Shown: positions 34,039-60,967 of the stretch, in pieces | Layout of the letters: every line of letters starts with the position of its first letter | Numbering within the stretch: position 1 is the first letter of the stretch | From: an uncultured Candidatus Saccharibacteria bacterium | GTDB lineage: Bacteria > Patescibacteriota > Minisyncoccia > Minisyncoccales > CAYJUL01 | Direction: 5' to 3' | Length of the DNA stretch: 63,927 nucleotides | NCBI GenBank assembly: GCA_964401295.1 | Contig: CAYNXX010000003.1 | Coordinates: 1-63,927 of the forward strand | Program-made: the position numbers and the translations under genes | Notes under the pieces: model-generated | What the model saw: only the letters and a program-made list of their open reading frames with translations | Told to the model about the DNA's origin: nothing | Databases searched by the model: none

Positions 34039-34055
34039 ATTGAAACCTTGCGAAA

Positions 34056-34123
34056 TTACGAATTAAATACGAATTTTATCTTGCATAAAAAATCACAGAA
34101 TTCGCATATTCGTATAGATTCGT
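34056..34123 (-). promoter_or_regulatory. Phased heptamer repeats forming a potential long hairpin in the rpoB 5' leader
   Basis: Plus strand: TACGAAT at 34056 and 34067; ATTCGCA at 34099; ATTCGTA at 34107 and 34117. On the mRNA strand, 2x UACGAAU can pair with 2x AUUCGUA around a U-rich loop. Confidence 0.35.
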
Positions 34124-34327
34124 ACTTCCGTAAGGCGCTCGCGAAATGAAACAAAAAGACCCTTGGAACAATTTTCCCTTAGGGTACAAGGACTTTTTTA
34201 ATTTTATAAAAAGAGGCTGTCCACTGGGAATTTAACCGCTTTATAAATCCGCTTTTGGCGGATATGGCTCTTTTACAAATTCAATTACTATTCTACACCT
34301 CCATAAATATTTGTCAAGGGCTTTGTG

Positions 34328-35677
34328 CTAGTAGCTCAATTGTCCGTAATAGAGCGATCTGTCTTTGGTCATAATCAATTGGCATTGATTGTCTGCAATT
34401 ACGCTAGAACATCCTACCCAAAACAATGAGGAACTTGTTGCCGAGGCGGTAATAACAAGAGTGCTCCCGGGATAATATCTGGCCGTGCAGTCCTGATTGC
34501 CATTGCCGCAGTTAATAGACGTATCAGGACCCGTTCCGCCCGAAGCTGTCAGCGTTGCGGCATTGTAAGGACCGACTTGGACCGCAAGCGAATAACCGGA
34601 GGGGTCAACGTCTTGCTCAAAACAATATATACCCAAGATATTATCACAGCTTTTCCTCGAGTATGCACTCCAATAGCTGTTGGTATAAGCGCTAAAGCCA
34701 TAATAAGAAGAGTCTACAGTACTGCTGCTAGTCCAGTTTCTACATGTGTAGGAAGATGAGTATAATGTGCCAGTATAGTTTGTCCCTGTCCAAATAACAG
34801 AAGTAGCCAAGTCTCCGGTTAAATAATATTTTATCGGATTAGCAAGCGTGCCATCTTTAAGGTCAGTCCAGCTTGTTGCAATACTATTTATGTAAGCAGC
34901 AGTTACGTATCCTCTGGTGTTTTGTGATCCGCAATTTGAAGAAAAGCGCGAGGAAATAGAAGTTGTGGATGCGTCTGTCATCCATGCTTTCCAATTCGCT
35001 GCTCCAAGGTTATAGTCATTTGCGAAACCCTGACAAATAGCATCAGCCTGACCCAAACGGCCGATAGCTCCATTATAAGTACCTTTGGTGGCAAAAACCT
35101 CGCAGGGCTGCGACACTGAATTGGCAAGAGCGTTGCACGATGAGCCCACACACATTGAAGTGCTAGTTCCTGTGCCTGGCTGGTAGCAGGTAGCGATTCT
35201 CCCGACCAGAGAACTTGAGGCATTGCAGTCAGTAGAAGTCGTAGTATTCATTATATTTCTTCTGAATCCGTTTTGAGGCGCGCTTGTCTGCGCGATCTGA
35301 GATAAACTCTCCGGATAACCGTCCCCGTCTACGTCAATCATCCACAAAGGCATTTTGACTATTTTTGCGCCAACCCCTTTATTAAGTATTATCGCCCCGC
35401 CCGGCGAAACGACAATCGTACCCCTTGCAATCGTCTGACTGGCTACCGTACCGACGGTAAGAGTCGCGCTGGAGGAAACAGTTAAGGTTGCGCTGTTTGT
35501 GCTGCCGGTACCGGCGTCCACCCCGTTAACAGCGGAAGAAAAACTGCAGCTTGAAAGAAGAGTTACGTTTCCCGAAATGGGCACACTGCAAGCAACAGCC
35601 TGGACTTTAGCCGCTAAAAGCAACATAAATGCGCTTAAAACGATCGGAAAAATTTGTTGGTTAATTCTATTTTTCAT
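34328..35677 (-). CDS. Secreted Cys-rich protein with an endostatin / C-type-lectin-like (DUF1554-like) domain
   Basis: Signal peptide (LLLAAKVQA). GRLGQADAICQGFANDYNLGAANWKAWMTD...WTGTN...CRNWTSSS...SCDNILGIYCFEQ matches the DUF1554/endostatin-type pattern as I recall it. Confidence 0.5.
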   Translation of the reverse strand: MKNRINQQIFPIVLSAFMLLLAAKVQAVACSVPISGNVTLLSSCSFSSAVNGVDAGTGSTNSATLTVSSSATLTVGTVASQTIARGTIVVSPGGAIILNKGVGAKIVKMPLWMIDVDGDGYPESLSQIAQTSAPQNGFRRNIMNTTTSTDCNASSSLVGRIATCYQPGTGTSTSMCVGSSCNALANSVSQPCEVFATKGTYNGAIGRLGQADAICQGFANDYNLGAANWKAWMTDASTTSISSRFSSNCGSQNTRGYVTAAYINSIATSWTDLKDGTLANPIKYYLTGDLATSVIWTGTNYTGTLYSSSYTCRNWTSSSTVDSSYYGFSAYTNSYWSAYSRKSCDNILGIYCFEQDVDPSGYSLAVQVGPYNAATLTASGGTGPDTSINCGNGNQDCTARYYPGSTLVITASATSSSLFWVGCSSVIADNQCQLIMTKDRSLYYGQLSY

Positions 35678-35686
35678 GTCTATTAA

Positions 35687-36553
35687 TCATCTTATGGCAA
35701 AATCAACTGAAGAACGATTGCCTGCCGCATCCTCGGCGGCGAAGGTAATTATAAAGTTATTGTTGTAAGCGTCGCTGACGGTCCAAGAACCCAACCAAGT
35801 GCCGTCGTTCGGACTGCCGGAAGTAAGATTAAGTGTTTTGGTGAACCATCCATTATCGGTCTGAATGGTTGCCGCTACAGATGTAACATCCGCCTGATCG
35901 TCTTTTACCGAAAGCTGAACTTCCTGTTTTCCGCCCTCAGAAGCCGGATCTATGGTGCTTGTCCAAAGCGAGTACATCTGAGGTATTGCAAGGCGCTGGC
36001 TTATGCTCCAGGTCTGCGGGCCTTGGACGAGCGCGGCTAATTGCCCCGACAAAGGTGGAGGGGTCGGGGTTGGCGTGATTGTTATCGTGGTTGTGGCGGC
36101 GGCAAAAGTCACAAGAGATGAACCCGTCCCGGCGGCTATTCCGGCGTTGTATTTTCCGTCCGGACCGCAAGAGTTAGGGCATGCCCACTGGTTCGGTGGC
36201 GTTGTCTCAAAATTGGCGTAAAGCTGGTAGGTTTTTCCGTCGCTACTTACATATATATATTCTTGCGCAGGGGAAAGCGGGTCTTTAGGCACTCTTTTCA
36301 AATACCCATCCCAGCTTCCACCCCATGGAACTCCGGCGATTTGATATTCCGGCGTTGAAAGCGGATAAGTATTGTTTTTGACATAAAATATTTCAAGGGC
36401 GAGCTGGAGCGCGGCAATGTCGCCGGAACGTTTTGCGTCACGGGCCTGAGCTTTGGGGCTCCGCAACCACACTAAACCAACCGAGGCTATAATTCCGATA
36501 ATTACAATAACGACTAATAATTCAATGATGGTAAAACCTCGTTTCATAATCAT
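35687..36553 (-). CDS. Type IV pilin / GspG-like pseudopilin with a T/P-rich linker and a C-terminal Ig-like domain
   Basis: Prepilin motif KRGFTIIELLVVIVIIGIIA, a GspG-like core (RDAKRSGDIAALQLALEIFY, VPKDP), linker AAATTTITITPTPTPPP, and a beta-rich C-terminal domain of about 110 aa. Confidence 0.8.
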   Translation of the reverse strand: MIMKRGFTIIELLVVIVIIGIIASVGLVWLRSPKAQARDAKRSGDIAALQLALEIFYVKNNTYPLSTPEYQIAGVPWGGSWDGYLKRVPKDPLSPAQEYIYVSSDGKTYQLYANFETTPPNQWACPNSCGPDGKYNAGIAAGTGSSLVTFAAATTTITITPTPTPPPLSGQLAALVQGPQTWSISQRLAIPQMYSLWTSTIDPASEGGKQEVQLSVKDDQADVTSVAATIQTDNGWFTKTLNLTSGSPNDGTWLGSWTVSDAYNNNFIITFAAEDAAGNRSSVDFAIR

Positions 36554-36562
36554 TAATAAATA

Positions 36563-36985
36563 TCATTCTACTTTCAGCGTCCCGAACATGCCCTGCTCTT
36601 TTTGGCCTGGTATTGACGAGTAAAACTTGAAAGTTCCGGATTTTGTCGGGGTGAACTCAATCATCTCAAACCGTTTGCTTAAAGGAACATTGATTCCCAA
36701 TTCGTCTACAGTAAATGTGTGCTCGCCGGTGTTATCAACGAAAATTTTCACAGGCTTGCCTTTTGGCACAGTAAACTCTTCGGGGGAAAAAGCATAATCA
36801 AGAGCCAATAAGTCATATTCCCCCGCCCCTCTTTTTATTAAAGACGAAGGCGGTTGCTGCGGTGGCATTTCTTTTGCCGGTGTTATGTTTTTAATTGCGA
36901 AAAATATATAAAACGCTCCAGCAATACCTGCCAAGCCCAGGATTAGTAAAAAATGCGCCAGCTTCGTATTTTGAATTCTGATCAT
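36563..36985 (-). CDS. Membrane-anchored cupredoxin-fold protein with a degenerate type-1 copper site
   Basis: N-terminal TM segment. The C-terminal FKFYSSIPGQKEQGMFGTLKVE aligns to the cupredoxin Y-C-x-x-x-x-H-x-x-x-G-M motif, with Cys replaced by Ser and His by Gln. Confidence 0.65.
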   Translation of the reverse strand: MIRIQNTKLAHFLLILGLAGIAGAFYIFFAIKNITPAKEMPPQQPPSSLIKRGAGEYDLLALDYAFSPEEFTVPKGKPVKIFVDNTGEHTFTVDELGINVPLSKRFEMIEFTPTKSGTFKFYSSIPGQKEQGMFGTLKVE

Positions 36986-37068
36986 TTTAGCAAGAATCCA
37001 TACGGATTCTCTCTATTTTTATTTTCTCAAATGATAAAACTCTGTCAATAGGTCAAAGAGGCCTCAGT

Positions 37069-39336
37069 TTATTGCGCGATTTTTTCCAATTTTTCTCGAC
37101 CTGTCAGGATTTGGCCAGAATAGGCTGGATACATTTCGGTTAGTTTGTCATACAGCTCCAGGCTTGCCTGCTTATTGCCCTCGCGCCATAAAACCGCAGC
37201 CACATTCTCAAAAATAAAAAGCATTTTTGTATTTTTCGCAATTATCTGTCGCTGTTCTTTCGAACCGGACGCAAAAATTTCATAGACGCCATCCGCAGCC
37301 TTCTTGCCATAGCTGGCAGCCTCTTTAAGATTGCCGGCGCGAAGATACGCGGTGGAAATTTGCATATAGATAGGCGGCAAGAGCCGATTTCTCCCTTCCA
37401 CAAGGGCCAATTCTTTAACAAACGCTTCTGAGGCGGCATTCTCATCTTGTTGGTATAGCTTTGCCGCGCCCAAAATACCATAAAATCGAGACCACTGACC
37501 ATTAAATCCCAGGGCCCTGTTTGCGATATTCTCCATTTCGCGGGCCGCATTTTGGTCCCTGAGCAAAAGAAAGCGTCGCTCCGCAATTGCCGCAAGAACT
37601 TCATAGGTCACCATTGCGCTGGTATCCGGCCTTGCAAACGATGATTCAATGAGAGGCCTAACGCTATTGTCAAGATATTGATTCTTGTAGGCTATAGTTC
37701 CCGGATCGTCCCTAAGAGGGATGATGTGCCTTGCCGAGTCTCGGGCAAAATCCGCGGCCATAAAAACATTTTCTTTTTCCGCAAGGTTTATAAGGCGCAT
37801 TTCAGCCGCAACGTCACCTTTCTGACCGGCCAAAATCGCCTGCAAAAAATTGTAATTGGCCTGGAGAGGCCGAAAAAATCCAAAAAAAGAAACAAGCGCT
37901 AGGATAAAAATCGCAAAAAACAAAAATGATTTTGCCAAAGGGGACGCAATATTTAATTCAAGGCCGGTTCCTTTTCCGCTGGACAGCTTGAATCTGGCAA
38001 AGGCAAGAATTAAAAAAAATGATAGCAAACTGCTTATGGTATCGAAGCTAAAAATATCCTGCACTAAATTCGAAAAGAAAAATGCAATAAGCAGAGCAGC
38101 TGCGAGTCCGAGCCGTTTTCTATTATAAAAAAGCTTCAGTAGCGCCAAAAAGACAATTGCAATCCAGACGAAAGCGCCGATAATGCCGGTTTCGGCCAAA
38201 AGGTTTAACGCTTTATTATGTGCATCAAAAAACAAAGAATCACTTTCAAGAAAACGATAATATCGCGAAATAAAATATTTCTGATAAAGATATGCAAATG
38301 AATATGGTCCCCATCCCAAAAATGGCTTATCTTTGAAGGCGCGAAGTGCAACGTCCCATGCGGGCAGACGATTATTCAATATTTCCGGCCTCAAATCTAG
38401 CAATCGCTTAAAAATAAAACTTTGCTGAAGATAAGCTTTGGCAAAGAGCAAAAAAATTATGCCAAGAAAAATAACAAACAAAAGGCAAGAAAAAATAAAT
38501 ATCCTCTTTTGTTTCTTCAGCCAGTTGGCCAACTCGGCGAAAGATAAAATGGCAAAAATAATAAATCCGGCCGCAAGGCCAAGCAGCGCAGCCCGGCTTG
38601 CCGAGAAAAATAAGGCAATAATAATAAGTATTGCGCTGGATGACCAGATGGCGATAAGTGGTTTATTGCGTTCCTGTCGCAAAAGATATAAAGCCAAAAA
38701 TACTATTGGCGCGAGAAATCCGGCGAAATAAACCGGATTTCCCAGCGTGCCGCCTGAACGCACTGCAACAGCGCTTTTTAATATCTCTGCCAAGCCGAAC
38801 TTCTGTAAAATGCCGGTAAACGAAACTCCTCCCGCAACCAAAACCAAAACTCCCAACAGCCATTTCCATTCTTTATCTTGACTGAATATTGAGGCGAGTA
38901 GAATAAAAAAGATTAAAAAATGAAGCTCTAAGAAGAGTCCTCCGCCAAATTCTGCCGCGCCCCAGAAGCTGCGGCTAAAATTAAATCCAAGAAATGCGGA
39001 GATGATACGGACGGCAAAAAAAAGTAAGACAAGAAATAACAGCGCATCCATCTTCGGAAGGAGCAACCGACCACGCAGCGCAAGCGCCAGCCAAAGAAAA
39101 AGAGCGACTTCGATCAGGACAATAAAATATATCCCCTTTACATATTCCGGCGAGACATATCCAAACGGCAGAATGAATATTAAAAGCGGGGTAAACAAAA
39201 TCAGAAAAAGGCAGATGTGTATGCCGCGATCCAAAATGCTTTCTTCAAAAAAGGCGATTTTGTTCATAAAAATAAACCGATTATCATTCCTCTTGTTTTG
39301 GAAAAATTTCCAGCAAGAAACTGGCGTGATATCCAA
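37069..39336 (-). CDS. O-antigen ligase family (Wzy_C) polytopic membrane protein with C-terminal TPR repeats
   Basis: About 12 TM segments, SASRAALLGL and DAHNKALNLLAETGIIG motifs, TPR-like C-terminus of about 270 aa. The likely start is the ATG at 39267, which gives an ATGA overlap with the upstream GT2 stop. Confidence 0.8.
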   Translation of the reverse strand: MDITPVSCWKFFQNKRNDNRFIFMNKIAFFEESILDRGIHICLFLILFTPLLIFILPFGYVSPEYVKGIYFIVLIEVALFLWLALALRGRLLLPKMDALLFLVLLFFAVRIISAFLGFNFSRSFWGAAEFGGGLFLELHFLIFFILLASIFSQDKEWKWLLGVLVLVAGGVSFTGILQKFGLAEILKSAVAVRSGGTLGNPVYFAGFLAPIVFLALYLLRQERNKPLIAIWSSSAILIIIALFFSASRAALLGLAAGFIIFAILSFAELANWLKKQKRIFIFSCLLFVIFLGIIFLLFAKAYLQQSFIFKRLLDLRPEILNNRLPAWDVALRAFKDKPFLGWGPYSFAYLYQKYFISRYYRFLESDSLFFDAHNKALNLLAETGIIGAFVWIAIVFLALLKLFYNRKRLGLAAALLIAFFFSNLVQDIFSFDTISSLLSFFLILAFARFKLSSGKGTGLELNIASPLAKSFLFFAIFILALVSFFGFFRPLQANYNFLQAILAGQKGDVAAEMRLINLAEKENVFMAADFARDSARHIIPLRDDPGTIAYKNQYLDNSVRPLIESSFARPDTSAMVTYEVLAAIAERRFLLLRDQNAAREMENIANRALGFNGQWSRFYGILGAAKLYQQDENAASEAFVKELALVEGRNRLLPPIYMQISTAYLRAGNLKEAASYGKKAADGVYEIFASGSKEQRQIIAKNTKMLFIFENVAAVLWREGNKQASLELYDKLTEMYPAYSGQILTGREKLEKIAQ

Positions 39337-40157
39337 CCGGCATTGGCGCGATAAAAATTAATCTGAGAAGGAAAAGATTTTTTGCAATTTCGCATAAAAA
39401 TAAGTTTTCTATTTCTGCTTTCTTTTAGGCCGGTTAGAAATGGATGCTCGCCTGAAGAATTTTTATGAAAAAATTTGGCTCTTGGATTTATGATGCAGTG
39501 ATATCCGAGCCTTTTGGCCCGCATAAAAAAATCCGTTTCTTCAAGTGGAACGTGGCCTTCGCAAAATTCAGGAAAACCGCCTATCTTAAGCGCCTTTGTC
39601 CTATTCAAAGAGCAAAAGCAGCCTAACAAATAATATCCCTTGGCGGGCCATGAAATAAAATCATCCCAAACTTGAAATCCTGCGCTGTTCACATCCCAGG
39701 CGCATTGCCCGGAAAGACCAAATATGAAGTTGAAAATTCGCTCTCCGGTCCTTTTCTTTCTTGCGCCTGGCGCTACGCCTCCTACGCCTAGCAAGCGCGG
39801 ATCTTGCCGGTTACGCTGCCATATCTCCATAAGTTCTCTTAGGGCGCCGGGATATAAAACCGCGTCATTATCAAGAAAAACCACGATCTCGTTTGAGGCT
39901 TTGCGCAAACCAATGTTTTTTGAAGTCGCCGTTCCGCGAAGTTCTTCTGTGTGATTCTTTTTATGATAGATAAGTTTGATTTCTTTTTTCTCCGCCTCGC
40001 TTCTAATTTTTTCTAAAAAGAGCTTGTCTGTCTGTGCGTCATCAATTAAAATAATTTCGTTTGGAAGGACGTCTTGCGAGAAAACCGATTCAATGCACTC
40101 TGTCAAGTCTTTCGACCGATTATATGTTGGAATTATGAGGCTGAATAAAATTTTCAT
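39264..40157 (-). CDS. Glycosyltransferase family 2
   Basis: SLIIPTYNRSKDL...IILIDDAQTD...VFLDNDAV (DxD). Confidence 0.85.
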   Translation of the reverse strand: MKILFSLIIPTYNRSKDLTECIESVFSQDVLPNEIILIDDAQTDKLFLEKIRSEAEKKEIKLIYHKKNHTEELRGTATSKNIGLRKASNEIVVFLDNDAVLYPGALRELMEIWQRNRQDPRLLGVGGVAPGARKKRTGERIFNFIFGLSGQCAWDVNSAGFQVWDDFISWPAKGYYLLGCFCSLNRTKALKIGGFPEFCEGHVPLEETDFFMRAKRLGYHCIINPRAKFFHKNSSGEHPFLTGLKESRNRKLIFMRNCKKSFPSQINFYRANAGWISRQFLAGNFSKTRGMIIGLFL

Positions 40158-41241
40158 GGTATACTTTCTTGGTTTTTTCTAGCATTTTATCCAGAGAAAA
40201 TTGCAAAGATTGCCGCCGCGCTTCTCTGGCAAAGCCATCGCGCAGGGCCGCATCTTCAATAAGTGCGGCAAGCGCTTTTTTTATCCCTTCTTTATCCCTG
40301 ACCGGTACCAATATCCCGCATCTGTCGCTAATTAATTCTTTTACTCCGCCGACATTGGAAACAATAATCGCAATGCCAGCGCTCATCGCCTCTAAAACAC
40401 TATAGGGGCAAGCTTCAAAATTTGAAATAAGCGTGAAAATATCAGCCAGTTTCAACATCTGCCACACCATAGGGCGCGGCACTTCTCCAACAAGGCGAAC
40501 AGCTTGCTCCATTTTATGCTGGCGGATAAAACGCTCAAGTTTTGGTCGCAAAGGACCTTCGCCAACAATATCCAAACAAATATTTTTTGTTGCAACCTGC
40601 AGTTCAAAAAATGCCCTTAAAAGCAGTAACGGATCTTTTTGGCTACTCAATCGTCCTACAAAAATTATCCTGACCGGGCTGGATTCCATTTTTCCGCGAA
40701 TTCCATCCGCCGGAACCATTTCTATGCCGTTGTGAATACAGATAAGTTTATTTTTCTCCGCGATGCTCCATTTTTTGGCTAGCTCAACATCAAATTCGGA
40801 AACGCAGATAATTTTTGCAGCGTATCTGGCTGTAATTTGGGCGCTGAGAAAACCAACTATTCGCATCCAAAAAGAAGCCCTGGGCACAAAAGGCCACCCG
40901 TGCGCCGTAAATATCATCGGCCTTCTTGTGAAGATCGAAAGCGCGCCTATCAGTCCGGCAAAAGAACTATTGCAGTGCACAATATCTGGCGTAACTTGGC
41001 CGATCGCTTTTCGGCAACAATGCATCGCTTTCAAAATATTAATTGGTGAAAAATGGTGCGCAAAAAATGGATTTTCGTAGTATCGAATATTGTTCTTTTG
41101 CAGTTCTTGGGATAGCCAACCTGATCCGCGGCTCATTACTGCAACCTCATGTCCGAGTTCTTTCATATGCGAAGCTAGCTGCGCCACGTATGTTTGCGCG
41201 CCGCCGGCATCCGAATTTGTGACAATATATAAAATTTTCAT
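40120..41241 (-). CDS. Glycosyltransferase family 4 (GT-B, Glycos_transf_1)
   Basis: N-terminal GGAQTYV, C-terminal EACPYSVLEAMSAGIAIIVSNVGGVKELI. Confidence 0.88.
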   Translation of the reverse strand: MKILYIVTNSDAGGAQTYVAQLASHMKELGHEVAVMSRGSGWLSQELQKNNIRYYENPFFAHHFSPINILKAMHCCRKAIGQVTPDIVHCNSSFAGLIGALSIFTRRPMIFTAHGWPFVPRASFWMRIVGFLSAQITARYAAKIICVSEFDVELAKKWSIAEKNKLICIHNGIEMVPADGIRGKMESSPVRIIFVGRLSSQKDPLLLLRAFFELQVATKNICLDIVGEGPLRPKLERFIRQHKMEQAVRLVGEVPRPMVWQMLKLADIFTLISNFEACPYSVLEAMSAGIAIIVSNVGGVKELISDRCGILVPVRDKEGIKKALAALIEDAALRDGFAREARRQSLQFSLDKMLEKTKKVYHENFIQPHNSNI

Positions 41242-42242
41242 AGTTCGCCTTCTTTTTTCATATTTTCTCTCAATCCGTCAAAAACGCCTAGGAAAGAATA
41301 GTAAAACACCTGTGGCCGCCGGGCGCGATTCATAAAACCTGTTAAGAATGCCCAGAATGAATAATACAGACCGAGCTTTAACAAGACGAATGCCATGCTT
41401 TCGTTTTTCGTTTTTCTACCGATTATATCCATGTAGACCATGTTGCGGAAAATATAGTAATGTTTCCACGGAGGGGAAAAATTATGCAGGAAAAATTTGG
41501 CAATAAAAAATTTTTTCTCTTTAGGGCTCCATATCGGCACTGAAACCACTTTTATGATTGTTGTTGGGTGATACACGATGCTGGCTGCATGATAATAAAG
41601 ACGGAAGCCATGTTTTCTTAGCCGCTCAAAAAATTCCCACGATCCTCCATGGGTAAAATAAAGAGGGTCAGGCAGGCCGGCCTCGAGTAGGGCATTTTTC
41701 GGAAAAAGTATTCCCGTCCACTGAGCGCCGTGCCCTTCTACCAGTTCACCTATTTTGCATAATTCTTCATAGCTTTGCGTTGCTGAAAATTTTTTGCCGG
41801 CAAGAATAACGCTGACCGGTTCAAAAAAATGCGTCCCGTCTGGCACGAGCGCGCAACTTGCAAAAATTCTTTTTTTCTGCGGTTGCTCGCGGGCAGACTC
41901 CAGGAGTCTTAAAAGAGCATCCTTTGCCGGCACAACGTCCTGCTCTATGGCCCAAATGTAATCAAAACCAGCCGACAGCGCCCTTTTAAGTCCGGCGTTA
42001 AACCCGCCTTCGCTTCCCGTGTTATGCTTGAGTCTCAAATAGTCAATTTTTTTATTCCCAAAATAGCCAAGACTTCTTAAAAATTCCAAGGCGCCGTCTT
42101 CTGAAGCATTATCTATGATAATAATCGCATCCAGCGGCCGCATCTGCAAACACAAAGCCCTAAGGCATTTTTCAAGCGCTTTTTTATTGTTATAAGCAAC
42201 AGTTACGCTAGCAACCGAGAAAGAAGACGCAGTAGGATCCAT
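41238..42242 (-). CDS. Glycosyltransferase family 2 (rhamnosyltransferase-like), paralogue of 43123-44142
   Basis: VTVAYNNKKALEKCLRAL..QMRPLDAIIIIDNASEDGALEFL; the fold pattern is shared with the 339-aa GT2. Confidence 0.8.
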   Translation of the reverse strand: MDPTASSFSVASVTVAYNNKKALEKCLRALCLQMRPLDAIIIIDNASEDGALEFLRSLGYFGNKKIDYLRLKHNTGSEGGFNAGLKRALSAGFDYIWAIEQDVVPAKDALLRLLESAREQPQKKRIFASCALVPDGTHFFEPVSVILAGKKFSATQSYEELCKIGELVEGHGAQWTGILFPKNALLEAGLPDPLYFTHGGSWEFFERLRKHGFRLYYHAASIVYHPTTIIKVVSVPIWSPKEKKFFIAKFFLHNFSPPWKHYYIFRNMVYMDIIGRKTKNESMAFVLLKLGLYYSFWAFLTGFMNRARRPQVFYYSFLGVFDGLRENMKKEGEL

Positions 42243-43126
42243 CTTAAATAAAAAATAAATAAATAAATTTTTTCGGGCAGAAAGGAAAGGATAAGAAGAA
42301 AATACGGAGGAGGATAAATTGGGTAACTCCTTATTGCTTTAATGATTCTATTTCTTGCGCTTTTAATATCGCCCCAGTTCATATAAATATAGGCGTCGAA
42401 AAACAGCCGGCGCGTCAAATGAAACGGATTGGATGTGTAATATAATATATATTTTTGCAGTATCTGGTCCATATCTCTTTGCATCTTAGCGCAATGCTTA
42501 CGGGAGGTCAGACTTTCTTCTGTATTATTTCTTTTCAAAGCTCTTTGCGGAGCGACTATAAAATGGTAGCCGGCCAGCGCGATCCTGCAAAGCAAATCCC
42601 AATCGTCGGCAAAACTAATATTTTCATCTATAAATCCGCAGTTTTGCACGATTTGTTTTTTTATCACCACCGAAGAGAAATAGATGGGCATTTTTGAAAG
42701 AACAGAATCGCCACTTATTGCTCTTGGAACGGAAACCATCCTTGACGTCCTAACATCTTCGCAGGCCACTACCGCCAGCAAAGGATCAGCGCTTTTTTCA
42801 AACAAATCTAATTGAATTTCTAATTTTTCCGGCAACCACTCGCCGTGCTGACAGATAAACGCGAGGTAATCTCCTACGGCCATTTTTATTCCCATATTAC
42901 GCGGCCCGGCCGGACCGCCGGAATTCTTGGAAATAAATATCGGCCGGATTCTTTTATCCTCGCTCGCAAATCTCTGCAATAAATTTTTTGTGCCATCGTT
43001 TGATGCGTCATCTATCAAAAGCAATTCCCAATTTTGCAAAGTCTGATTTTTTATGCTTAAAACCGTGCGCTCCAGCGTGGTCTCGGCATTATATACCGGA
43101 AGGATAACCGAAACTTTGGGCCTCAT
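42203..43126 (-). CDS. Glycosyltransferase family 2
   Basis: VSVILPVYNAETTLERTVLSIKNQTLQNWELLLIDDASNDGT. Confidence 0.85.
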   Translation of the reverse strand: MRPKVSVILPVYNAETTLERTVLSIKNQTLQNWELLLIDDASNDGTKNLLQRFASEDKRIRPIFISKNSGGPAGPRNMGIKMAVGDYLAFICQHGEWLPEKLEIQLDLFEKSADPLLAVVACEDVRTSRMVSVPRAISGDSVLSKMPIYFSSVVIKKQIVQNCGFIDENISFADDWDLLCRIALAGYHFIVAPQRALKRNNTEESLTSRKHCAKMQRDMDQILQKYILYYTSNPFHLTRRLFFDAYIYMNWGDIKSARNRIIKAIRSYPIYPPPYFLLILSFLPEKIYLFIFYLRWILLRLLSRLLA

Positions 43127-44142
43127 AATGTAAATCTGTTAATAAGGCGCTCGTTAAAGCCGTCCCAAAAGCCCAACATGCAATACTTAAAGGCCGGCAA
43201 ACGGTTCTTGTCCATGCTTATAACAACAAAGAGGCGGAAAAGACAATAAGGAACAGCCTTAAAAAACCGCACTAAAAAATTAATGCCGTGTCTTTCGCTT
43301 CTTCTGCCCAAACGCATTATAAGACCATTGCGCATTTGGTAATAATACTTCCAGGCAGGACGCAATCTGTAAAAATATATTTTCCAGCGTTTCGTTGGTC
43401 CCCAGAATAATGTTTTATATCCGTGCGCCAAGCGCGGATGAAATACGATGCTCTTTGTAGAATAATAGAGCGGAAAACCTCTTTGTCTGAGCCTGCGGCA
43501 AAATTCAAAAAATCCATCGTAAAAATATTCCGGATTGGGAAACGCACTAGTAAGCGCCTGGCGCGGCAAAAACAGTCCCGCATAAACCGCACCATGCCCT
43601 TCTACAAGCTCTCCAAATCCGCGCAGCTCTTCATAGCGCTCTATTTCTATATAGGCAACTCCGTCCGGCGTAGTAAAAATAGGCCTCTTGTCGGAATTTG
43701 CGGCTGTCTTAGCAATAAAAATAGGCTCTGAAAAATAAATGCCGCCCGGCGCAAGGTGGGAGCTGTTAAAACATGCTTTTTGCGCCGGAAATTCTTCTGC
43801 GGCGGCCAGAAGATACGCCAGTGCATCGTCTTTAGCTCCAGCATCCTGATCAAAAAGCCAAAAGTAATCAAACCCTTCTTGGTATGCCATCTTAAGGCCT
43901 GCGTAAAATCCTCCATCCGGACCAACATTTACGCTTAGCTTGTAATAGGCTACCTTCGGTTTTGAAAGATATCCCTCCTGGCGTAAAAATTCCTCGGTTC
44001 CATCCCGAGAAGCATTATCCACTAGGAAAATCTTATCCAATGGATAGCTCTGCCGAAGAAGCGAATCAAGGCATTGCCGCACAACAAACTTCGCATTATA
44101 AATCACCACAATGGCGCAAACTTTCGATCTTTTATCTTCCAT
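43123..44142 (-). CDS. Glycosyltransferase family 2 (rhamnosyltransferase-like)
   Basis: AIVVIYNAKFVVRQCLDSLLRQSYPLDKIFLVDNASRDGTEEFL. Confidence 0.8.
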   Translation of the reverse strand: MEDKRSKVCAIVVIYNAKFVVRQCLDSLLRQSYPLDKIFLVDNASRDGTEEFLRQEGYLSKPKVAYYKLSVNVGPDGGFYAGLKMAYQEGFDYFWLFDQDAGAKDDALAYLLAAAEEFPAQKACFNSSHLAPGGIYFSEPIFIAKTAANSDKRPIFTTPDGVAYIEIERYEELRGFGELVEGHGAVYAGLFLPRQALTSAFPNPEYFYDGFFEFCRRLRQRGFPLYYSTKSIVFHPRLAHGYKTLFWGPTKRWKIYFYRLRPAWKYYYQMRNGLIMRLGRRSERHGINFLVRFFKAVPYCLFRLFVVISMDKNRLPAFKYCMLGFWDGFNERLINRFTL

Positions 44143-45172
44143 AATACAGATGCGGATTCAGATATTTATTTTTAACATTTTTACGAATATCCATAAGCCA
44201 ACTCTTATGCTCTTTATACCAACGCATTGTCTCCAAAAAAGCATCGCTAAAAGAAAAATGGGGCCGCCACTCAAACTCTTTTTCTATCTTCCCGCTGTCA
44301 ATGGCATGAAAACGAATATCAGCCGGCCTGTCTTCTACAAATTCAATCCACGAATCATCCTTGCCAAAATAGCGCAAGATCATTCTTGCAATTTCTATGT
44401 TCTGCAGATTTTCTTTTGTGCCTACATTATAGATTTGCCCAGGCGTGCCCCTAAAAAGGCAGCGCTCCAGAGCCGCGCAGGTATCCAGCACATAAATCCA
44501 GTTTCGGACGTGCCTTCCATCGCCATAAAGGGGTAGTTTTTTTCCTTCCATAAGGCGTAGAACAAAAAATGGAATAAATTTTTCAGGGTGCTGAAATGGA
44601 CCGTAATTATTGGCGCATATTGCGACAACTACCGGCAGATTGAAAGTGCTAAAGTACGAAAGACACAAAAGATCTCCGGCGGCTTTTGTCGCTGCGTAGG
44701 GACTTTGCGGCGAAAGACGGTCTTCTTCCCGAAAGCCTCTTTTAAACCTGGATGGCAAGCTTCCATAAACCTCAATACTAGAAACCTCCAAATATTTTTT
44801 TATATGCGGACTCGCCATCCTTACTGCGTCAGCAATGCTTCGCACCCCCTCTATATTTGTCGTTACAAATTCTTCAGTGCCGCAATAAATAGATCTGTCA
44901 ACATGCGTTTCTGCAGCAAAGTTAACCAGATATTGCGGTCGGAACAAAGTGATAGCTCGCCGGAGACGCTGAAAATCTGCGATATCTCCTTTTAAAAATT
45001 TCGTGCGGCTGTTGCCTGCTATGTCCTTAAGTCTGCGCAAATCTCCAGCATAAGTCAGTTTATCATAATTCAAAATTAGCGCCCACGGATATTTTCGCAG
45101 AATATAACGTATAAAATGGGAGCCGATGAAACCTGCCCCTCCGGTCACAAAAATTTTAAGATTTTTCGGCAT
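44132..45172 (-). CDS. rfbB: dTDP-glucose 4,6-dehydratase
   Basis: VTGGAGFIGSHF Rossmann motif, YAATKAAGD (YxxxK), NNYGPFQHPEKFIPFFVLRLMEGKKLPLYGDGRHVRNWIYVLD. Confidence 0.88.
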   Translation of the reverse strand: MPKNLKIFVTGGAGFIGSHFIRYILRKYPWALILNYDKLTYAGDLRRLKDIAGNSRTKFLKGDIADFQRLRRAITLFRPQYLVNFAAETHVDRSIYCGTEEFVTTNIEGVRSIADAVRMASPHIKKYLEVSSIEVYGSLPSRFKRGFREEDRLSPQSPYAATKAAGDLLCLSYFSTFNLPVVVAICANNYGPFQHPEKFIPFFVLRLMEGKKLPLYGDGRHVRNWIYVLDTCAALERCLFRGTPGQIYNVGTKENLQNIEIARMILRYFGKDDSWIEFVEDRPADIRFHAIDSGKIEKEFEWRPHFSFSDAFLETMRWYKEHKSWLMDIRKNVKNKYLNPHLYYGR

Positions 45173-45196
45173 AGGCCACGGAAAATTAATTCTTGA

Positions 45197-46231
45197 TCAG
45201 CGAAGCCAATGGGAAATGTCGCCATCGCCCAGAAGGAGATGCCGCGGAGTTTTCTGCATCAGCGTCTCTTCTAAAAGTAAAATATCATTTCTGAAATACT
45301 TTCGCAATTCGTTGCGAAATTCGTCTCTTATTTTAGCCGAAGGAGCATGTTTTACCAACAACGAATAGGCCGCTGGCCCTAATAAATCTTTAACCCTGGG
45401 CAAAATGTTAAATCTGCGCTTTATGCCTAACTTTTCTTTTGTTTTTTGCACCAGCGGCAAAGGTTTTCTCCAAAAAAGCGGCTCAAAAAATTTTCGACAT
45501 AGTAAAGGCGCTATAAAATTTGCCTTCCACATCCTGCTTCTGTTTATCGCGGGGAAGTCTGATCGGCCGTCGGATGGCACGCCCAAAAATCTCAGCACTT
45601 TTTCATATACCTCTTTGGGATTTTGCCTGAAATAATCCCACATAATAATCAATGCCCTTTCCTGACTGATTAATTGATAAAATCTTTGCATCTGCTTGCC
45701 AAGTTGAAATATATCTCCGTATTGCAACACGCGCGGCTCTCTAATCCAGTCTGGCATATCAGGAATAAATAAACCATTTCTGCGGGCATCTTGAAGCCGC
45801 CATGCTTTTTCAAAATCAGGAGCGTCTTCTGTGCCCAAAAAACGATAGAGAAGGTAGTAAGAAGGCGCTGTTGCAAGCGGCGAGCGCAGTAAGACGATAA
45901 ATTTTGCCTCGGGATTATATCGCAGAATCTCCGGCACGGCTTTTTTGCTGAAAAGATACAAGACCGATCCTTCGCCTGCGGTTTTCCATAGTCTTTGCCT
46001 CAGCCTTGGGAAACATATATTGATATAATCCTCAACGGTGCACATACGCTGGTCCCTCGGAAGATTAAGATCTGTATTAAAAAAATTCGGCTCCTTCGGA
46101 CAAGAACATAATATATCCGGATGCGACTTCAAATATTCAAACAACGCTGTGGTTCCGCTGCGCGGCGCTCCGATGATAAAAAAATTTGGTTTTAACAATC
46201 CACTAGCCATTAAATAAATTTTCTTTAACAA
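45197..46231 (-). CDS. PAPS-dependent sulfotransferase family protein
   Basis: 5'-PSB loop IIGAPRSGTTAL and 3'-PB-like VLLRSPLATAPSYY; cytoplasmic (no signal peptide). Confidence 0.8.
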   Translation of the reverse strand: MLKKIYLMASGLLKPNFFIIGAPRSGTTALFEYLKSHPDILCSCPKEPNFFNTDLNLPRDQRMCTVEDYINICFPRLRQRLWKTAGEGSVLYLFSKKAVPEILRYNPEAKFIVLLRSPLATAPSYYLLYRFLGTEDAPDFEKAWRLQDARRNGLFIPDMPDWIREPRVLQYGDIFQLGKQMQRFYQLISQERALIIMWDYFRQNPKEVYEKVLRFLGVPSDGRSDFPAINRSRMWKANFIAPLLCRKFFEPLFWRKPLPLVQKTKEKLGIKRRFNILPRVKDLLGPAAYSLLVKHAPSAKIRDEFRNELRKYFRNDILLLEETLMQKTPRHLLLGDGDISHWLR

Positions 46232-47840
46232 ATTTTATCACTCTTAGGGCATTTTCTTCTGCGCCTAATTGATGAGTAAAAAGATGGACTTCTGCTTGCT
46301 CTGGCGGTTCATAAGGATCGGATATGCCAGTGAAGTGCAAAATTCTGCCCAACCGCGCCTTTTGATAAAGTCCTTTAGTATCCCTTTTCTCGCATATTTC
46401 CAGCGGACAATCACAAAATACCTCTATAAATCTTCCGCCAGCCTCTTCTACTTTCTTTCTCACAAACGATCGCTGCTGGGCATAGGGCGAAATAAATGAA
46501 CAGACAACTGCAACTCCCCTTTTTGTAAATAATGCCGCGAGAGTTGCAACTCTTCTAATATTTTCATCGCGATCCGCTTTTGAAAATCCAAGGTCGCTGC
46601 TTAGATACTCTCTCGCATCATCTCCGTCTAAACGTTCAGCCGGCCATCCGGCTTCTTCAATGAAACGAAAAACATTATTTGCGATTGTTGTTTTGCCAGA
46701 CTGCGATAAACCCGTAAACCATAATACAAATCCCCCTTTTTTGCTCATGGCTGAAGACTGATACCATTGATCTATCAGCGGCTTTCGGCTGCAAGAAAGT
46801 AGATAGAAAATCTCCGGACGCAAAAGAAAAGAGGGCGGTTGCTCCTTTTTTTCAATTAAATCGCGCAGAAGGGTCGCGCTAAAAGATATATCATCGTTCG
46901 TGATGCATTCGCCAGCGAAACGATGCCGTTTTGCGCCGGAACACCACACCACTTCCGGAAACTTCAAAATTTCAATTCCCAATTCTTTTTTTGAGAAGCT
47001 GTCAAAAATCTGCTGAGCCGCGAACGGAAGATAATAATTGCCTACCCCTGCATGATCCCGCCCCACAATAAAATGAGTGCAGCCATAATTTCTCCGCACT
47101 AGAGCATGAAATACCGCTTCGCGAGGACCAGCATAACGCATTTTCAAAAATGCGACTGCCAAAATTGCTCGTCCTTGGGGATAATAATGGTCAAACAGCA
47201 TTTCGTAGCTCGCAAGAATATATTCGTCCTTAAAATCTGCAAGCTTCTTTCTCCCCACGATTGGCTGTAAAAAAAGTCCGTCTGTCACAGATAGCGCTTG
47301 CTGATGTAAAAACTCATGGCCCCGGTGCGGTACATTTCTCGTCTGAAACGCGGCTATTGTTTTCCATCCTTTTTCATGGAAAATCTTTTTTGTTTCGACG
47401 GGCCTAAAATAATATTCCCTAAATTCGTGAACTTCGGGCAAACTTATAGTTTCCAGCTCTCCACCCAATAAATAATTCTTCATCTGGACGAATTCGTCAA
47501 CTCCCGGATGCTTTCTGTCGGCGGTTCCAAAAATTAATCGCGCGCTGCGTTCTTTGTCATACTCGTAAATTTCGATATCCTTGAGCAAACCTATGATTTT
47601 AGATTCCTCATCCTTTAATAAAACCTCATCTTCTTTTTTAAGTCTATCCGCTGTTTGCTGGTCAATATCCAAAATAATCGGAATCGGCCATATCGCTCCG
47701 TTACTAAGCCGCATTTCGGTGCATACGCTTTCAAAATCCTTTTTCTTTAAAAATCCGGAAAGCGGCGCATATACACCGTCTTTAATATTTCTTAGCTCAT
47801 TTATTTTTTCTGCGCTCAACACGAGTTCTTCATGGGCCAT
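46203..47840 (-). CDS. sat/cysC: Bifunctional sulfate adenylyltransferase (ATP sulfurylase) / adenylylsulfate kinase, i.e. a PAPS synthase
   Basis: QTRNVPHRGHEFL and GRDHAGVGNYY (sulfurylase). The C-terminal domain has GLSQSGKTTIAN (P-loop) and FISPY (APS kinase). Confidence 0.9.
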   Translation of the reverse strand: MAHEELVLSAEKINELRNIKDGVYAPLSGFLKKKDFESVCTEMRLSNGAIWPIPIILDIDQQTADRLKKEDEVLLKDEESKIIGLLKDIEIYEYDKERSARLIFGTADRKHPGVDEFVQMKNYLLGGELETISLPEVHEFREYYFRPVETKKIFHEKGWKTIAAFQTRNVPHRGHEFLHQQALSVTDGLFLQPIVGRKKLADFKDEYILASYEMLFDHYYPQGRAILAVAFLKMRYAGPREAVFHALVRRNYGCTHFIVGRDHAGVGNYYLPFAAQQIFDSFSKKELGIEILKFPEVVWCSGAKRHRFAGECITNDDISFSATLLRDLIEKKEQPPSFLLRPEIFYLLSCSRKPLIDQWYQSSAMSKKGGFVLWFTGLSQSGKTTIANNVFRFIEEAGWPAERLDGDDAREYLSSDLGFSKADRDENIRRVATLAALFTKRGVAVVCSFISPYAQQRSFVRKKVEEAGGRFIEVFCDCPLEICEKRDTKGLYQKARLGRILHFTGISDPYEPPEQAEVHLFTHQLGAEENALRVIKFVKENLFNG

Positions 47841-50797: not shown

Positions 50798-50818
50798 GTT
50801 TAAAGTGTCACTTTAAAC
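50798..50818. repeat. Perfect 21-bp palindrome GTTTAAAGTG-T-CACTTTAAAC, copy a
   Basis: Exact match to the copies at 54714, 59596 and 60472. Pairing extends to 50795-50821. It lies 25 nt upstream of the start codon at 50773. Confidence 0.9.
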
Positions 50819-54742: not shown

Positions 54743-55501
54743 TTAATTTGGCGTGGCTGTTACGATTATCATAGCTGTATAAGTTCCTGCTGTTTGAGTA
54801 TTGGCGGATCCAGACATTGCCTCTACTTTAATAGTTGTATTGGTGCCGGACGGCTGATTTGCAAAGAGCGAATTGGAAATATTTACGTCTGAGGTGGCAA
54901 AATTATACCAGCAAGCATCCGACGTATTACCAGAACCAACTCCGCATGTTGAACCATTATCAAGGAACTTTTGAACAACATCGGTTCCTTCGGGCGTAAA
55001 TCCGAATTCAGAAGTATTGTTGGCAATAGAAAAGCTAAAATCAGACGTTCCGGATTGAGCCGGCGTATAATCGGCAAAACTATTCCCTCCGCTTTTAAGC
55101 GCTGGCGCCGTAGAGGCCCGCGCAGTAAGCGTATAACCAGCCAAATTGTCGGTTATAACGGTCCAGCTGGCGGATCCTGTGGCCGCTCCCCCGCCTATAC
55201 CTGGAATAACCTGAGACATAGTGATATCCGGAGGCGCACTGATGGAAATAAAGGTTTCAGCCATTTGTTGATAACCAGATTTTATTTTATAATTCGCGCT
55301 TTGCGATTCATCGCTGCCTATTTCACCGATTGTATCTTTGCTTAAATAACTTGATGATTTTTGATCAATGCCTCCTATATTTATTGAATCTGATGGTATG
55401 CGATAATTTTGGCTGGACATAAAAGCCAAAACGGGATTTACCGCAAAAAAAGCGGAAATCCCGAATAAAAGTGATATAAATGTGGTGATAGTTTTGTTCA
55501 T
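54743..55501 (-). CDS. Secreted surface protein, paralogue of 56670-57347 (WxL-like by architecture)
   Basis: Signal peptide and N-terminal SxNYxI...SANYKI motifs. Blocks shared with the paralogue include ITMSQVIPGIGGGAATGSASWTV, FADYTPAQSGTSDF, FLDNGSTCG...DACWYNFAT and GTYTAMIIVTAT. Confidence 0.5.
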   Translation of the reverse strand: MNKTITTFISLLFGISAFFAVNPVLAFMSSQNYRIPSDSINIGGIDQKSSSYLSKDTIGEIGSDESQSANYKIKSGYQQMAETFISISAPPDITMSQVIPGIGGGAATGSASWTVITDNLAGYTLTARASTAPALKSGGNSFADYTPAQSGTSDFSFSIANNTSEFGFTPEGTDVVQKFLDNGSTCGVGSGNTSDACWYNFATSDVNISNSLFANQPSGTNTTIKVEAMSGSANTQTAGTYTAMIIVTATPN

Positions 55502-55557
55502 TGCATATATGTTGTAAACACGTTGTAGACATTATCTTAGAGACTGCACGCAGAGAC

Positions 55558-55586
55558 TTGACATAGAATATGGGGGGGGGCATTAT
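55558..55586 (+). promoter_or_regulatory. Promoter-like element with a G9 homopolymer inside the 17-bp spacer
   Basis: TTGACA (55558-55563), spacer TAGAATATGGGGGGGGG (G9 at 55572-55580), CATTAT (55581-55586). Confidence 0.3.
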
Positions 55587-55655
55587 CAAAATGAAGGCTC
55601 TTGACGCAAAAGTGGCTTAATTTTTACTGTGGGCTACCGATGCGCGGGTCTTCAT

Positions 55656-55690
55656 CCTCCGACTGCAATCGGAGGGTTTATTTTATTTTT
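55656..55690 (+). terminator. Plus-strand intrinsic terminator inside an all-minus-strand gene array
   Basis: CCTCCGA-CTGCAA-TCGGAGG followed by GTTTATTTTATTTTTT. On the minus strand no U-run follows. Confidence 0.45.
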
Positions 55691-56666: not shown

Positions 56667-56669
56667 AAT

Positions 56670-58317: not shown

Positions 58318-58331
58318 TGTTTATATTTATA

Positions 58332-58363
58332 CTTCATATCGGATATCGGAATCCGATATGAAG
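58332..58363. other. 12-bp perfect inverted repeat between the SEDS gene and the HTH-TM gene
   Basis: CTTCATATCGGA-N8-TCCGATATGAAG. Either a terminator or an operator candidate. Confidence 0.4.
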
Positions 58364-60961: not shown

Positions 60962-60967
60962 TATTAA

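Follow-up and report, generated by a model that had tools for sequence, protein, structure and literature searches.

A putative sulfated-glycan operon with a Wzy_C/TPR enzyme in a bacterium of the Candidate Phyla Radiation

Does a bacterium of the Candidate Phyla Radiation (CPR, or Patescibacteria) build a sulfated glycan for its surface, and, if so, onto what is that glycan transferred? The question is raised by a string of minus-strand genes at 34328-47840, labelled G1 to G12 in their direction of reading, within a 63,927-nt stretch of DNA (the window). The string joins a 3'-phosphoadenosine 5'-phosphosulfate (PAPS) synthase and a sulfotransferase to glycosyltransferase (GT) genes, a membrane enzyme of the Wzy_C class bearing tetratricopeptide repeats (TPR), and a pilin. 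Going by gene content and sequence, we consider it very likely that the product of the operon is a surface glycan built on a lipid carrier and sulfated in the cytoplasm; that the complete model holds, in which this glycan is also moved en bloc to surface proteins, seems to us an evenly balanced proposition. The organism itself is best placed in the CPR/Patescibacteria, because all named homologues of the Wzy_C enzyme (G9) come from that group; RpoB, RecA, and G1 each stay singletons when clustered at 90% identity. As all homologues belong to the CPR, we infer a monoderm host; CPR bacteria are generally considered to have no outer membrane.

A coupled gene string with its own PAPS supply

How tightly are these genes bound together? 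A preliminary description of the locus had counted thirteen genes; the string itself is real, but it holds twelve, and the gaps are too small for another. The gene order and open reading frames (ORFs) given there were confirmed, and the Pfam and NCBIfam assignments hold for the families listed. From G1 to G9, the successive junctions measure -8, +24, -11, -4, -40, -4, -38, and -4 nt (negative values are overlaps), with starts supported by database gene calls. A 29-nt overlap reported for one junction needs a TTG start, but the ATG of the database gene call for G2 (337 aa) gives 8 nt; the ATGA overlap of G8 and G9 at 39264-39267 had been described correctly and agrees with the database gene call for G9 (732 aa). 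Over the whole string, 7 of the 11 same-strand junctions overlap and 10 of the 11 are no longer than 25 nt, as against 2/29 and 9/29, respectively, elsewhere in the window. Thus, the genes are packed more densely than the background of an already compact genome. Translational coupling, which had been proposed for the full string, describes G1-G9 but not G10-G12, which are set off by a gap of 83 nt between G9 and G10 (the junctions G10/G11 and G11/G12 are +9 nt each). Within that gap lies a minus-strand promoter-like site (37021-37048; TTGACA-16-TG-GAAAAT), which scored 10/12 in a consensus scan, has an extended -10 TG, and is a consensus match only. Because the gap holds this site, G10-G12 are probably a separate unit. 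In our reading, G1-G9 make up a coupled operon of nine genes, and G10-G12, downstream of it, a module of three surface-protein genes that may also have a start of its own. The GC content of G1-G9 (0.41-0.46) is the same as that of the window, and composition thus gives no support to a recent horizontal insertion of these nine genes.

Which genes would supply and use the activated sulfate? G1 (46203-47840, 545 aa) is a Sat/CysC fusion, a bifunctional sulfate adenylyltransferase and adenosine 5'-phosphosulfate (APS) kinase, that is, a PAPS synthase, with the Pfam domains PUA_2, ATP-sulfurylase, and APS_kinase and with both TIGR00339 and TIGR00455 above their NCBIfam cutoffs. Its match to the Aquifex SAT/APS kinase 2GKS spans the entire protein (E 3e-112), and its motifs QTRNVPHRGHE, VGRDHAG, and GLSQSGKTT are invariant in comparison with CPR orthologues; a PAPS source with intact motifs, a feature of sulfated-glycan clusters, is present in the operon. 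G2 (45197-46210, 337 aa from its ATG) is a cytoplasmic PAPS-dependent sulfotransferase, with Sulfotransfer_3/1 above cutoff and a GAPRSGTT PAPS-binding loop near the N-terminus. Neither a signal peptide nor a transmembrane (TM) segment was detected in it, which would put sulfation in the cytoplasm, where PAPS is. Its best match in the PDB, the bacterial enzyme 3RNL, is named just "Sulfotransferase," and heparan-sulfate 3-O-sulfotransferases come next. G2 sits inside the GT cluster: its start overlaps the stop of G1, and its end is 24 nt from rmlB, with the GT genes beyond. Homologues of G2 are at most 41% identical and come from non-CPR phyla; the contexts of two of them (L004 and L005) were set aside, as their operons are not comparable.

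The sugar genes follow directly. G3 (44132-45172, 346 aa) is a dTDP-glucose 4,6-dehydratase, an RmlB-type short-chain dehydrogenase/reductase that scores 365.1 bits with TIGR01181, exactly the cutoff, and matches the Pfam families GDP_Man_Dehyd/Epimerase. Its identity as RmlB (RfbB) stands, but the "sugar activation" once ascribed to it does not, because RmlB modifies an already activated sugar (a sugar nucleotide). The five glycosyltransferases of the preliminary description were recovered as four of family GT2 and one of family GT4. G4 (43123-44142, 339 aa) and G6 (41238-42242, 334 aa) match Glycos_transf_2 and show weak similarity to GlfT1/rhamnosyltransferases; G5 (42203-43126, 307 aa) matches Glycos_transf_2 (E 3.5e-30), with TuaG as its best NCBIfam model, below cutoff; G7 (40120-41241, 373 aa), the GT4, matches Glycos_transf_1 and Glyco_transf_4; and G8 (39264-40157, 297 aa) is a Glycos_transf_2 protein whose gene shares the ATGA (stop and start) with G9. 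The window had been reported to lack a flippase and an initiating phosphoglycosyltransferase, and queries with CPR Bac_transf and Wzx sequences against its ORFs bear this out. CPR query sequences for CysQ, UDP-glucose dehydrogenase, and Wzz likewise found no match among the window ORFs.

Does the pairing of sulfation genes with glycan genes recur in other CPR genomes? The Sat/CysC proteins of L052 and L078 are 55-56% identical to G1, and L078 runs Sat/CysC-Wzx-sulfotransferase-GT4-GT4-Wzy_C/TPR-initiator-Wzy_C/TPR-murB. A Sulfotransfer_2 gene stands beside Wzx-Wzy_C/TPR-Wzx-initiator in L085. A metagenome scan with a three-protein Sat/CysC alignment returned 30 loci. The closest analogue of the window operon is L097, which runs Wzx-CysQ-Sat/CysC-sulfotransferase-GT2-GT4-GT4-GT2-Wzy_C, and related arrangements are found in L085, L052, L092, L093, L096, L098, and L115. 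A CysQ-type phosphatase of 3'-phosphoadenosine 5'-phosphate (PAP) adjoins Sat/CysC in L097, L103, and L115, and sulfotransferases from three Pfam families accompany it in L091, L094, L097, and L103. Among the other partners of Sat/CysC in the 30 loci are Wzx, Bac_transf, UDP-glucose dehydrogenase, and GTs, with Wzy_C in six. This synteny points to PAPS supply and sulfotransfer as recurrent companions of a lipid-linked glycan pathway that ends in Wzy_C. As judged from gene order, the recurrent association of PAPS, sulfotransferase, and Wzy_C-glycan genes is the best-supported part of the finding. Together with the G1 motifs, the G2 loop, and the lack of a TM segment or signal peptide in G2, the recurrent CPR loci also lend support to the earlier prediction that sulfation takes place in the cytoplasm before transfer.

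The Wzy_C/TPR enzyme and its family

What kind of enzyme ends the operon? G9 (37069-39267, 732 aa) is an O-antigen-ligase-like protein with a Wzy_C domain (PF04932; E 5e-22, residues 212-369), 13 TM helices by hydropathy and in its AlphaFold2 (AF2) model (pLDDT 87, pTM 0.87), and a C-terminal TPR region. The TPR are matched by the family profile and appear as helical repeats at 486-731 in the AF2 model; TPR_2 is matched in 26 of 32 family members. The O-oligosaccharyltransferases (O-OTases) WsfB and PglL likewise consist of Wzy_C plus a C-terminal TPR, according to a review of S-layer glycosylation (PMC2943079). The catalytic candidates R225, R300, and H350 align with the Arg/Arg/His of PglL and WaaL, and R300, P315, G318, G320, and H350 (P315xxG318xG320) are invariant among the 32 family members. 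Their counterparts are the catalytic R224/R298/H349 and the motif P313xxG316xG318 in NmPglL (PMC3643930) and R215, R288, and H338 in EcWaaL; because the Arg/Arg/His set is common to both, it does not discriminate between PglL and WaaL. PxxGxG has been given as PglL-specific (PMC3643930), but it is also found in WaaL 7TPG, and we rejected it as a discriminator. A family-invariant N177 near the position of PglL Q178 was not used either; it is one residue off in the hidden Markov model alignment and too ambiguous. By positive-inside reasoning from the basic loops 249-254, 381-388, and 429-442, the catalytic loop (283-351) and the TPR (486-731) would both lie outside, and we therefore predict that the TPR domain faces outward.

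A single-sequence search of the PDB with G9 had no match, and a profile of the full-length family was swamped by TPR matches; the search was therefore repeated with the membrane domain only. Only two structures were matched, WaaL 7TPG (5e-15) and 9RMK (7e-10). The latter is named "oligosaccharyltransferase," and its numbering reproduces the published residues Q178, N180, R298, P313, G316, G318, and H349 of Neisseria meningitidis PglL. The best Foldseek match of the G9 model was again WaaL 7TPG (TM-score 0.59, normalised to the target). By profile, the Wzy_C family matched both WaaL and PglL, and WaaL better; by fold, the best match of G9 was WaaL.

What company does the enzyme keep? G9 is without close relatives, and synteny is therefore testable at the family level only; a scan of genome contigs with G9 found nothing, and no database record was identical to the protein. 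A scan with the family motif, at one genome per species, gave at least 598 CPR loci, of which 80 were kept for neighbour counts, with neighbours annotated from ORFs and phmmer and spot-checked with Pfam. The family spans CPR classes (31-57% identity to the member P0003), and the adjacent GT sets vary. A conserved enzyme among varying GT sets suits a ligase or oligosaccharyltransferase (OTase) better than it suits a repeat-unit-specific polymerase. Within three genes of the family member we found murB in 41/80 loci (43/80 anywhere in the locus), a Bac_transf initiator in 32/80 (48/80), a PglF-like dehydratase in 24/80 (29/80), a DegT aminotransferase in 22/80 (22/80), a Wzx-like flippase in 7/80 (17/80), Sat/CysC in 1/80 (3/80), and a pilin-like gene in 0/80 (4/80). 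A Wzz-type polysaccharide co-polymerase (PCP) lay within two genes in 7/80 loci, which is also its count anywhere in the locus. These neighbours tie the Wzy_C/TPR family firmly to the assembly of undecaprenyl-pyrophosphate-linked glycans, not to pilins. Genes for lipopolysaccharide (LPS) or capsule export beside the operon, which the preliminary description had named as evidence that would tell against its reading, were looked for; no LPS, core, or capsule-export gene was found among the window ORFs or in the Pfam neighbour census of the 80 loci.

Two features of the family loci bear on the glycan and on possible acceptors. The family often sits with a bacillosamine-type module for the reducing-end sugar, as in pgl systems (L059), and pairs of Wzy_C genes adjoin genes for secreted S-layer-like proteins of 1148-1278 aa that are rich in S/T/A/G in L001 and L003, which hold two of the closest homologues of G9, and in L067. 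In many Parcubacteria, the Wzy_C/TPR gene ends a pgl-like block (L059:568-12148, and L007, L022, L048, L049, L053, L058, and L061) made up of GT4, GT2, a 197-aa PglC-like Bac_transf, a transketolase split into N and C parts, DegT, and a 620-aa PglF-like dehydratase; downstream of these blocks come murB and a ribosome hibernation factor.

The window itself holds a second member of the family. U3 (52428-54686, minus strand, 752 aa) is a Wzy_C + TPR paralogue, 32% identical to G9, and it is the best window match for 71 of the 90 Wzy_C ORFs in loci L001-L085; by this measure U3, not G9, is the more canonical copy, the one nearest the mainstream CPR family. Both Wzy_C/TPR genes directly precede surface-protein genes. 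U3 is followed by U2 (50800-52431, minus strand, 543 aa), a secreted protein that has an fn3 domain and is anchored to the membrane at its C-terminus; the start of its gene and the end of U3 overlap by 4 nt. U1 (48041-50773, minus strand, 910 aa), directly upstream of G1, is a membrane-anchored fibrous surface protein with no Pfam or PDB match and with a C-terminal tail (the last ~80 residues) that is 77% S/T/P.

Acceptor, polymer, or pilin

How might these parts work together? In the model we favour, Sat/CysC would produce PAPS, and the five GTs, with RmlB providing a 6-deoxyhexose precursor, would assemble, on the cytoplasmic side of the membrane, an oligosaccharide linked to undecaprenyl-pyrophosphate. 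A Bac_transf initiator, a Wzx flippase, and a CysQ PAP phosphatase would be encoded elsewhere in the genome. The cytoplasmic sulfotransferase G2 would sulfate the glycan prior to flipping, and outside the cell G9, through R225/R300/H350, would move it off the lipid carrier en bloc and onto an acceptor bound by the TPR domain. The likeliest acceptors would be Ser/Thr-rich disordered tracts of surface proteins, in a general O-glycosylation like that by WsfB or PglL. By their composition, the linker of the pilin G11 and the tail of U1 are candidate acceptors, and such a general system may still include the pilin among its substrates. En bloc transfer is favoured by the monoderm host with no LPS genes in view, by the Wzy_C + TPR architecture, by the conservation of the enzyme while GT sets vary, and by the S/T-rich or S-layer-like flanking proteins. 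In this model, the genes and their coupling, the conserved catalytic residues, the fold, and the recurring synteny of sulfation genes with Wzy_C clusters are observed; the topology, the lipid carrier, the sequence of steps, and the acceptor are deduced.

Protein O-glycosylation, as proposed in the preliminary description, is thus plausible in view of the Arg/Arg/His residues, the joining of Wzy_C with TPR, and the S/T-rich flanking proteins, but a number of observations weigh against it. The family profile scores higher for WaaL (7TPG) than for PglL (9RMK), and sequence alone cannot separate WaaL-type from PglL-type functions (PMC3643930). The PglL_A motif (PF15864), whose model is built from Gram-negative proteins, had no match at E <= 0.01 in G9 or U3, and among the 32 members it does not rank with the 25 families matched most often, so that at most one member can match it. 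Wzz/PCP genes adjoin family members in 7 of the 80 loci, a sign of polymerisation in those loci. Scaffolds for polysaccharide export, BcsC among them, have TPR too, and a TPR domain is therefore suggestive of a protein acceptor, not proof of one. The initiator, the flippase, and CysQ are all absent from the 64-kb window, and no homologue of G9 above 32% identity was found in 5.8 billion proteins. Lastly, pilin adjacency is not conserved across the family, and in the window the pilin lies two genes downstream of G9.

Could the product be a polymer? In a serious rival to our model, though a less likely one, the same lipid-linked sulfated unit would go into a secondary cell-wall polysaccharide, a capsule, or an exopolysaccharide, an anionic envelope polymer and not a protein glycan, for which G9 and/or U3 would be a Wzy-type polymerase like TuaE or XssF. 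Precedents for such a product are the tua operon and the xss cluster, the latter joining sulfotransferases, GTs, and Wzx/Wzy (PMC8205485). In the CPR loci, the adjacent Wzz/PCP genes fit a polymerase, as do Wzx, present in 17/80, and murB, adjacent in 41/80; the best weak NCBIfam similarities of G5 and G7 are to the teichuronic-acid proteins TuaG and TuaC, sulfotransferase homologues from outside the CPR lie in clusters for polysaccharides, alongside ABC exporters and a pyruvyl transferase (L005), and two Wzy_C paralogues per locus could be a polymerase and a ligase. Yet the family is kept across CPR classes despite differing GT sets, and typical Wzy polymerases are not conserved in this manner. 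The window, moreover, has no Wzz, Wzx, PCP, or export genes, both of its paralogues directly precede surface-protein genes, and the joining of TPR with Wzy_C is documented for O-OTases (PMC2943079). A quite different possibility, and in our view a very improbable one, is that the PAPS/sulfotransferase pair has some other substrate, be it a small molecule, a glycolipid, or, as with RaxST, a tyrosine in a peptide, and that its place in the operon reflects co-regulation only. The sole strong PDB match of G2, 3RNL, is listed with no substrate, the matches to tyrosylprotein sulfotransferases are weak and limited to the P-loop, and bacterial sulfotransferases are known to act on rhizobial and mycobacterial lipo-oligosaccharides (PMC8205485). 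But the start of G2 overlaps the stop of G1, with the rmlB/GT genes 24 nt downstream, sulfotransferases of three families take the equivalent position in other CPR glycan clusters, and heparan-sulfate 3-O-sulfotransferases are its next-best PDB matches, all of which argue against this reading.

Is G9, finally, a TfpO/PilO-like enzyme dedicated to the T/P-rich linker of the pilin G11? G11 (35687-36553) is a true protein of the prepilin type: it passes the cutoffs of N_methyl and T2SSG and has the prepilin site KRG|FTIIE; its AF2 model has a helix at 7-58, a stretch with pLDDT below 50 at residues 141-186 that contains the disordered T/P-rich linker TTTITITPTPTPPP, and seven strands at 190-285 that form a C-terminal beta-sandwich with weak matches to Ig-like/FnIII folds. 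It thus has the features of a type IV pilin or type II secretion system pseudopilin (class III signal peptide, N-terminal helix, beta-sheet). A neighbouring pilin is also the rule for PglL/TfpO systems, in which pilin genes adjoin O-OTase genes in 21 of 31 (PMC3643930), and a distant pilin homologue, P0171, is followed by a gene for a 640-aa Wzy_C/TPR-like protein and a GT2 gene (L088/L089). We nevertheless think a pilin-dedicated system unlikely. The preliminary description had tied the glycan genes to the pilin, and in other CPR loci one half of that synteny recurs, that of the sulfation genes with Wzy_C, but the other does not: a pilin-like gene occurs within three genes of the family member in none of the 80 loci and is found in none of the 30 Sat/CysC loci. 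The composition of the linker is not conserved among G11 homologues (T/P-rich in some, P/E/G-rich in others), the 83-nt gap with its promoter-like site stands between G9 and the pilin module, and the Wzy_C/TPR-like protein of L088 lacks the His motif. In L088:5060-7801 and L089:5440-8181, where it directly follows the pilin, that protein has FTSSSS in place of FDRAHN, with the catalytic His motif gone, and could be an inactive or repurposed member of the family.

The closest full-length homologue of G11, P0167 (35% identical), also argues against a dedicated pairing: it lies in a G10-G11-G12-like module (L086) without glycan genes. There the order is a giant protein of 2711 aa, a small membrane protein, the pilin, a protein like the C-terminal domain of G11, and a G12 homologue. 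The giant protein shares 50% identity locally (over a 60-residue stretch) with U1. Genes of the U1 and G10-G12 types are thus neighbours in L086 and are split here by G1-G9, which suggests, from this one locus, either functional association or insertion; it is possible that G1-G9 were inserted between U1-like and G10-G12-like neighbours. The 135-aa small membrane protein that takes the place of G10 before the L086 pilin has no detectable sequence similarity to G10. In another homologue, P0166, from a 1640-bp metagenome contig, a 304-aa gene call fuses the N-terminus of an adenylate kinase to a stretch that shares 68% identity with the C-terminal two-thirds of G11; the likely cause is a frameshift, an assembly artefact, or a pilin gene that is truncated.

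Surface-protein surroundings and known relatives of the system

What else surrounds the operon? The entire 34-58 kb stretch of the window is given to envelope and surface proteins. G10 (36563-36985, 140 aa) is a membrane-anchored protein of cupredoxin fold (Cupredoxin_1, 34.5 bits, above cutoff) with one N-terminal TM segment. Blue-copper proteins bind the metal through Cys...His...Met ligands; G10 reads FYSSIPGQKEQGM at the copper-ligand position and has apparently lost the Cys/His ligands. G12 (34328-35677, 449 aa) is a secreted Cys-rich protein with a signal-peptide-like N-terminus, and its N-terminal 140 aa are homologous to the gene that follows the pilin module in L086. The label "lectin-like" once given to G12 finds no support, with DUF1554 at 23.6 bits against a cutoff of 27.5 and no match in a PDB search.

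Farther upstream on the minus strand, at 54743-57347, are genes for three secreted proteins without a Pfam match, which look like an uncharacterised surface-protein cluster; two of them (54743-55501 and 56670-57347) look like paralogues that share ...TMSQ.(I/L)PG(I/L)GGG.ATG..(S/T)WTV, and the third (55683-56666) starts with a signal peptide and ends in a TM anchor. At 58000-60400 the GC content falls to 0.325, and a weak IS200-like Y1 transposase ORF (59647-60393) stands beside FtsW/RodA (58467-59555). More pilin-like genes lie at 60563-63923 (minus strand), where 60968-61546 matches N_methyl and 61537-62109 has GFTIIE, followed by a 626-aa protein without a Pfam match; this may be a minor-pilin cluster, and pilus motor genes were not found in the window. 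Downstream of the surface module, after a spacer of 289 nt (34039-34327), comes rpoB-rpoC. The spacer holds a near-consensus promoter-like site (TTGACA-16-TAGAAT, 34317-34290, 11/12), and rplJ/rplL are not upstream of rpoB-rpoC, contrary to the usual arrangement. At the far end, tRNA-Ser (2653-2740) has beside it a large serine recombinase (1192-2541) and an ORF resembling a terminase large subunit (33-1115); an integrated phage or mobile element probably has its edge here, at 33-2740.

Which known systems does the operon resemble? The slg clusters for O-glycosylation of S-layer proteins in Gram-positive bacteria encode the O-OTases WsaB in Geobacillus stearothermophilus and WsfB in Paenibacillus alvei (PMC2943079). 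Like the window, they combine a monoderm host with an rml gene, several GTs, a Wzy_C transferase, and surface-protein genes nearby, and WsfB, by its published architecture, shares with G9 the C-terminal TPR. However, no sulfotransferase or PAPS synthase is described there, and slg clusters have a WsaP-type initiator and an exporter (Wzm/Wzt or Wzx); the window is without both, and the loci of its relatives have them beside family members. PglL of Neisseria and TfpO (PilO) of Pseudomonas and Acinetobacter resemble G9 in their Wzy_C domain, in the residues corresponding to R225, R300, P315, G318, G320, and H350, in a C-terminal TPR-like region, and in a pilin nearby (PMC3643930, PMC9829042; PDB 9RMK). 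They differ in that G9 has no PglL_A and a profile nearer to WaaL, that the CPR host is monoderm, that their known donor glycans are not sulfated, and that the CPR family has no conserved pilin adjacency. WaaL of Cupriavidus metallidurans (7TPG) is the best profile and fold match of G9 and likewise has its catalytic loop between TM9 and TM10, but it has 12 TM segments and no TPR and ligates to lipid A-core; G9 has an extra 13th TM segment and an external TPR domain of ~250 aa, and there are no LPS genes in the window or the related loci.

Sulfation brings the locus closer to the xss cluster for Synechocystis synechan, in which sulfotransferases (PF00685/PF13469/PF03567) lie among GTs with a Wzy_C-class enzyme (PMC8205485). 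That cluster includes Wzx, Wzy, a PCP, and a priming GT, lists no dedicated PAPS synthase, and makes a released polymer in a diderm. In the window, by contrast, the operon opens with a Sat/CysC fusion, its last enzyme has TPR, and there is no PCP or outer-membrane polysaccharide export (OPX) protein. The Bacillus subtilis tua operon is likewise an operon for an anionic surface glycan, with a TuaG-like GT2 and a TuaC-like GT4, and its TuaE is a Wzy_C-class membrane protein. Its charge comes from uronic acids and not from sulfate, however, it encodes an initiator, a flippase, and the Wzz-like TuaF, and the similarity of the window proteins to Tua proteins is far below the NCBIfam cutoffs. All components of the operon are of known kinds. 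Their combination in CPR bacteria, a coupled operon headed by a dedicated PAPS synthase with a sulfotransferase, five GTs, and, at its end, a TPR-bearing Wzy_C enzyme, is not described in the literature we found; our searches returned nothing on sulfotransferases or Wzy_C/TPR enzymes in Patescibacteria, nor on CPR together with O-antigen ligase and pili. Sulfated bacterial glycans are considered rare, and according to the work on synechan, sulfated polysaccharides had been reported essentially only from cyanobacteria (PMC8205485).

What would such an operon mean for these organisms? CPR bacteria live attached to host cells, and the chemistry of their surfaces is almost unknown. The recurrent, self-contained module of PAPS synthase, CysQ, sulfotransferase, GTs, and Wzy_C/TPR enzyme offers a concrete handle on it, and that the Wzy_C/TPR family occurs in at least 598 representative CPR genomes makes it a candidate for a core envelope function. 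We advance it only as a tentative extrapolation from these loci that protein O-glycosylation by an OTase of Wzy_C plus external TPR might extend through the phylum, with the glycan sulfated in a subset of lineages that would include this one. If G9 is a protein O-OTase, the PglL/WsfB paradigm would extend to a very large share of bacterial diversity, and the enzyme might serve in glycoengineering as one with a built-in acceptor-binding domain. If the model as a whole is true, this would be, to our knowledge, the first sulfated protein O-glycan system in Bacteria, and it would give the pili and S-layer-like fibres of an episymbiont a strongly anionic glycan coat.

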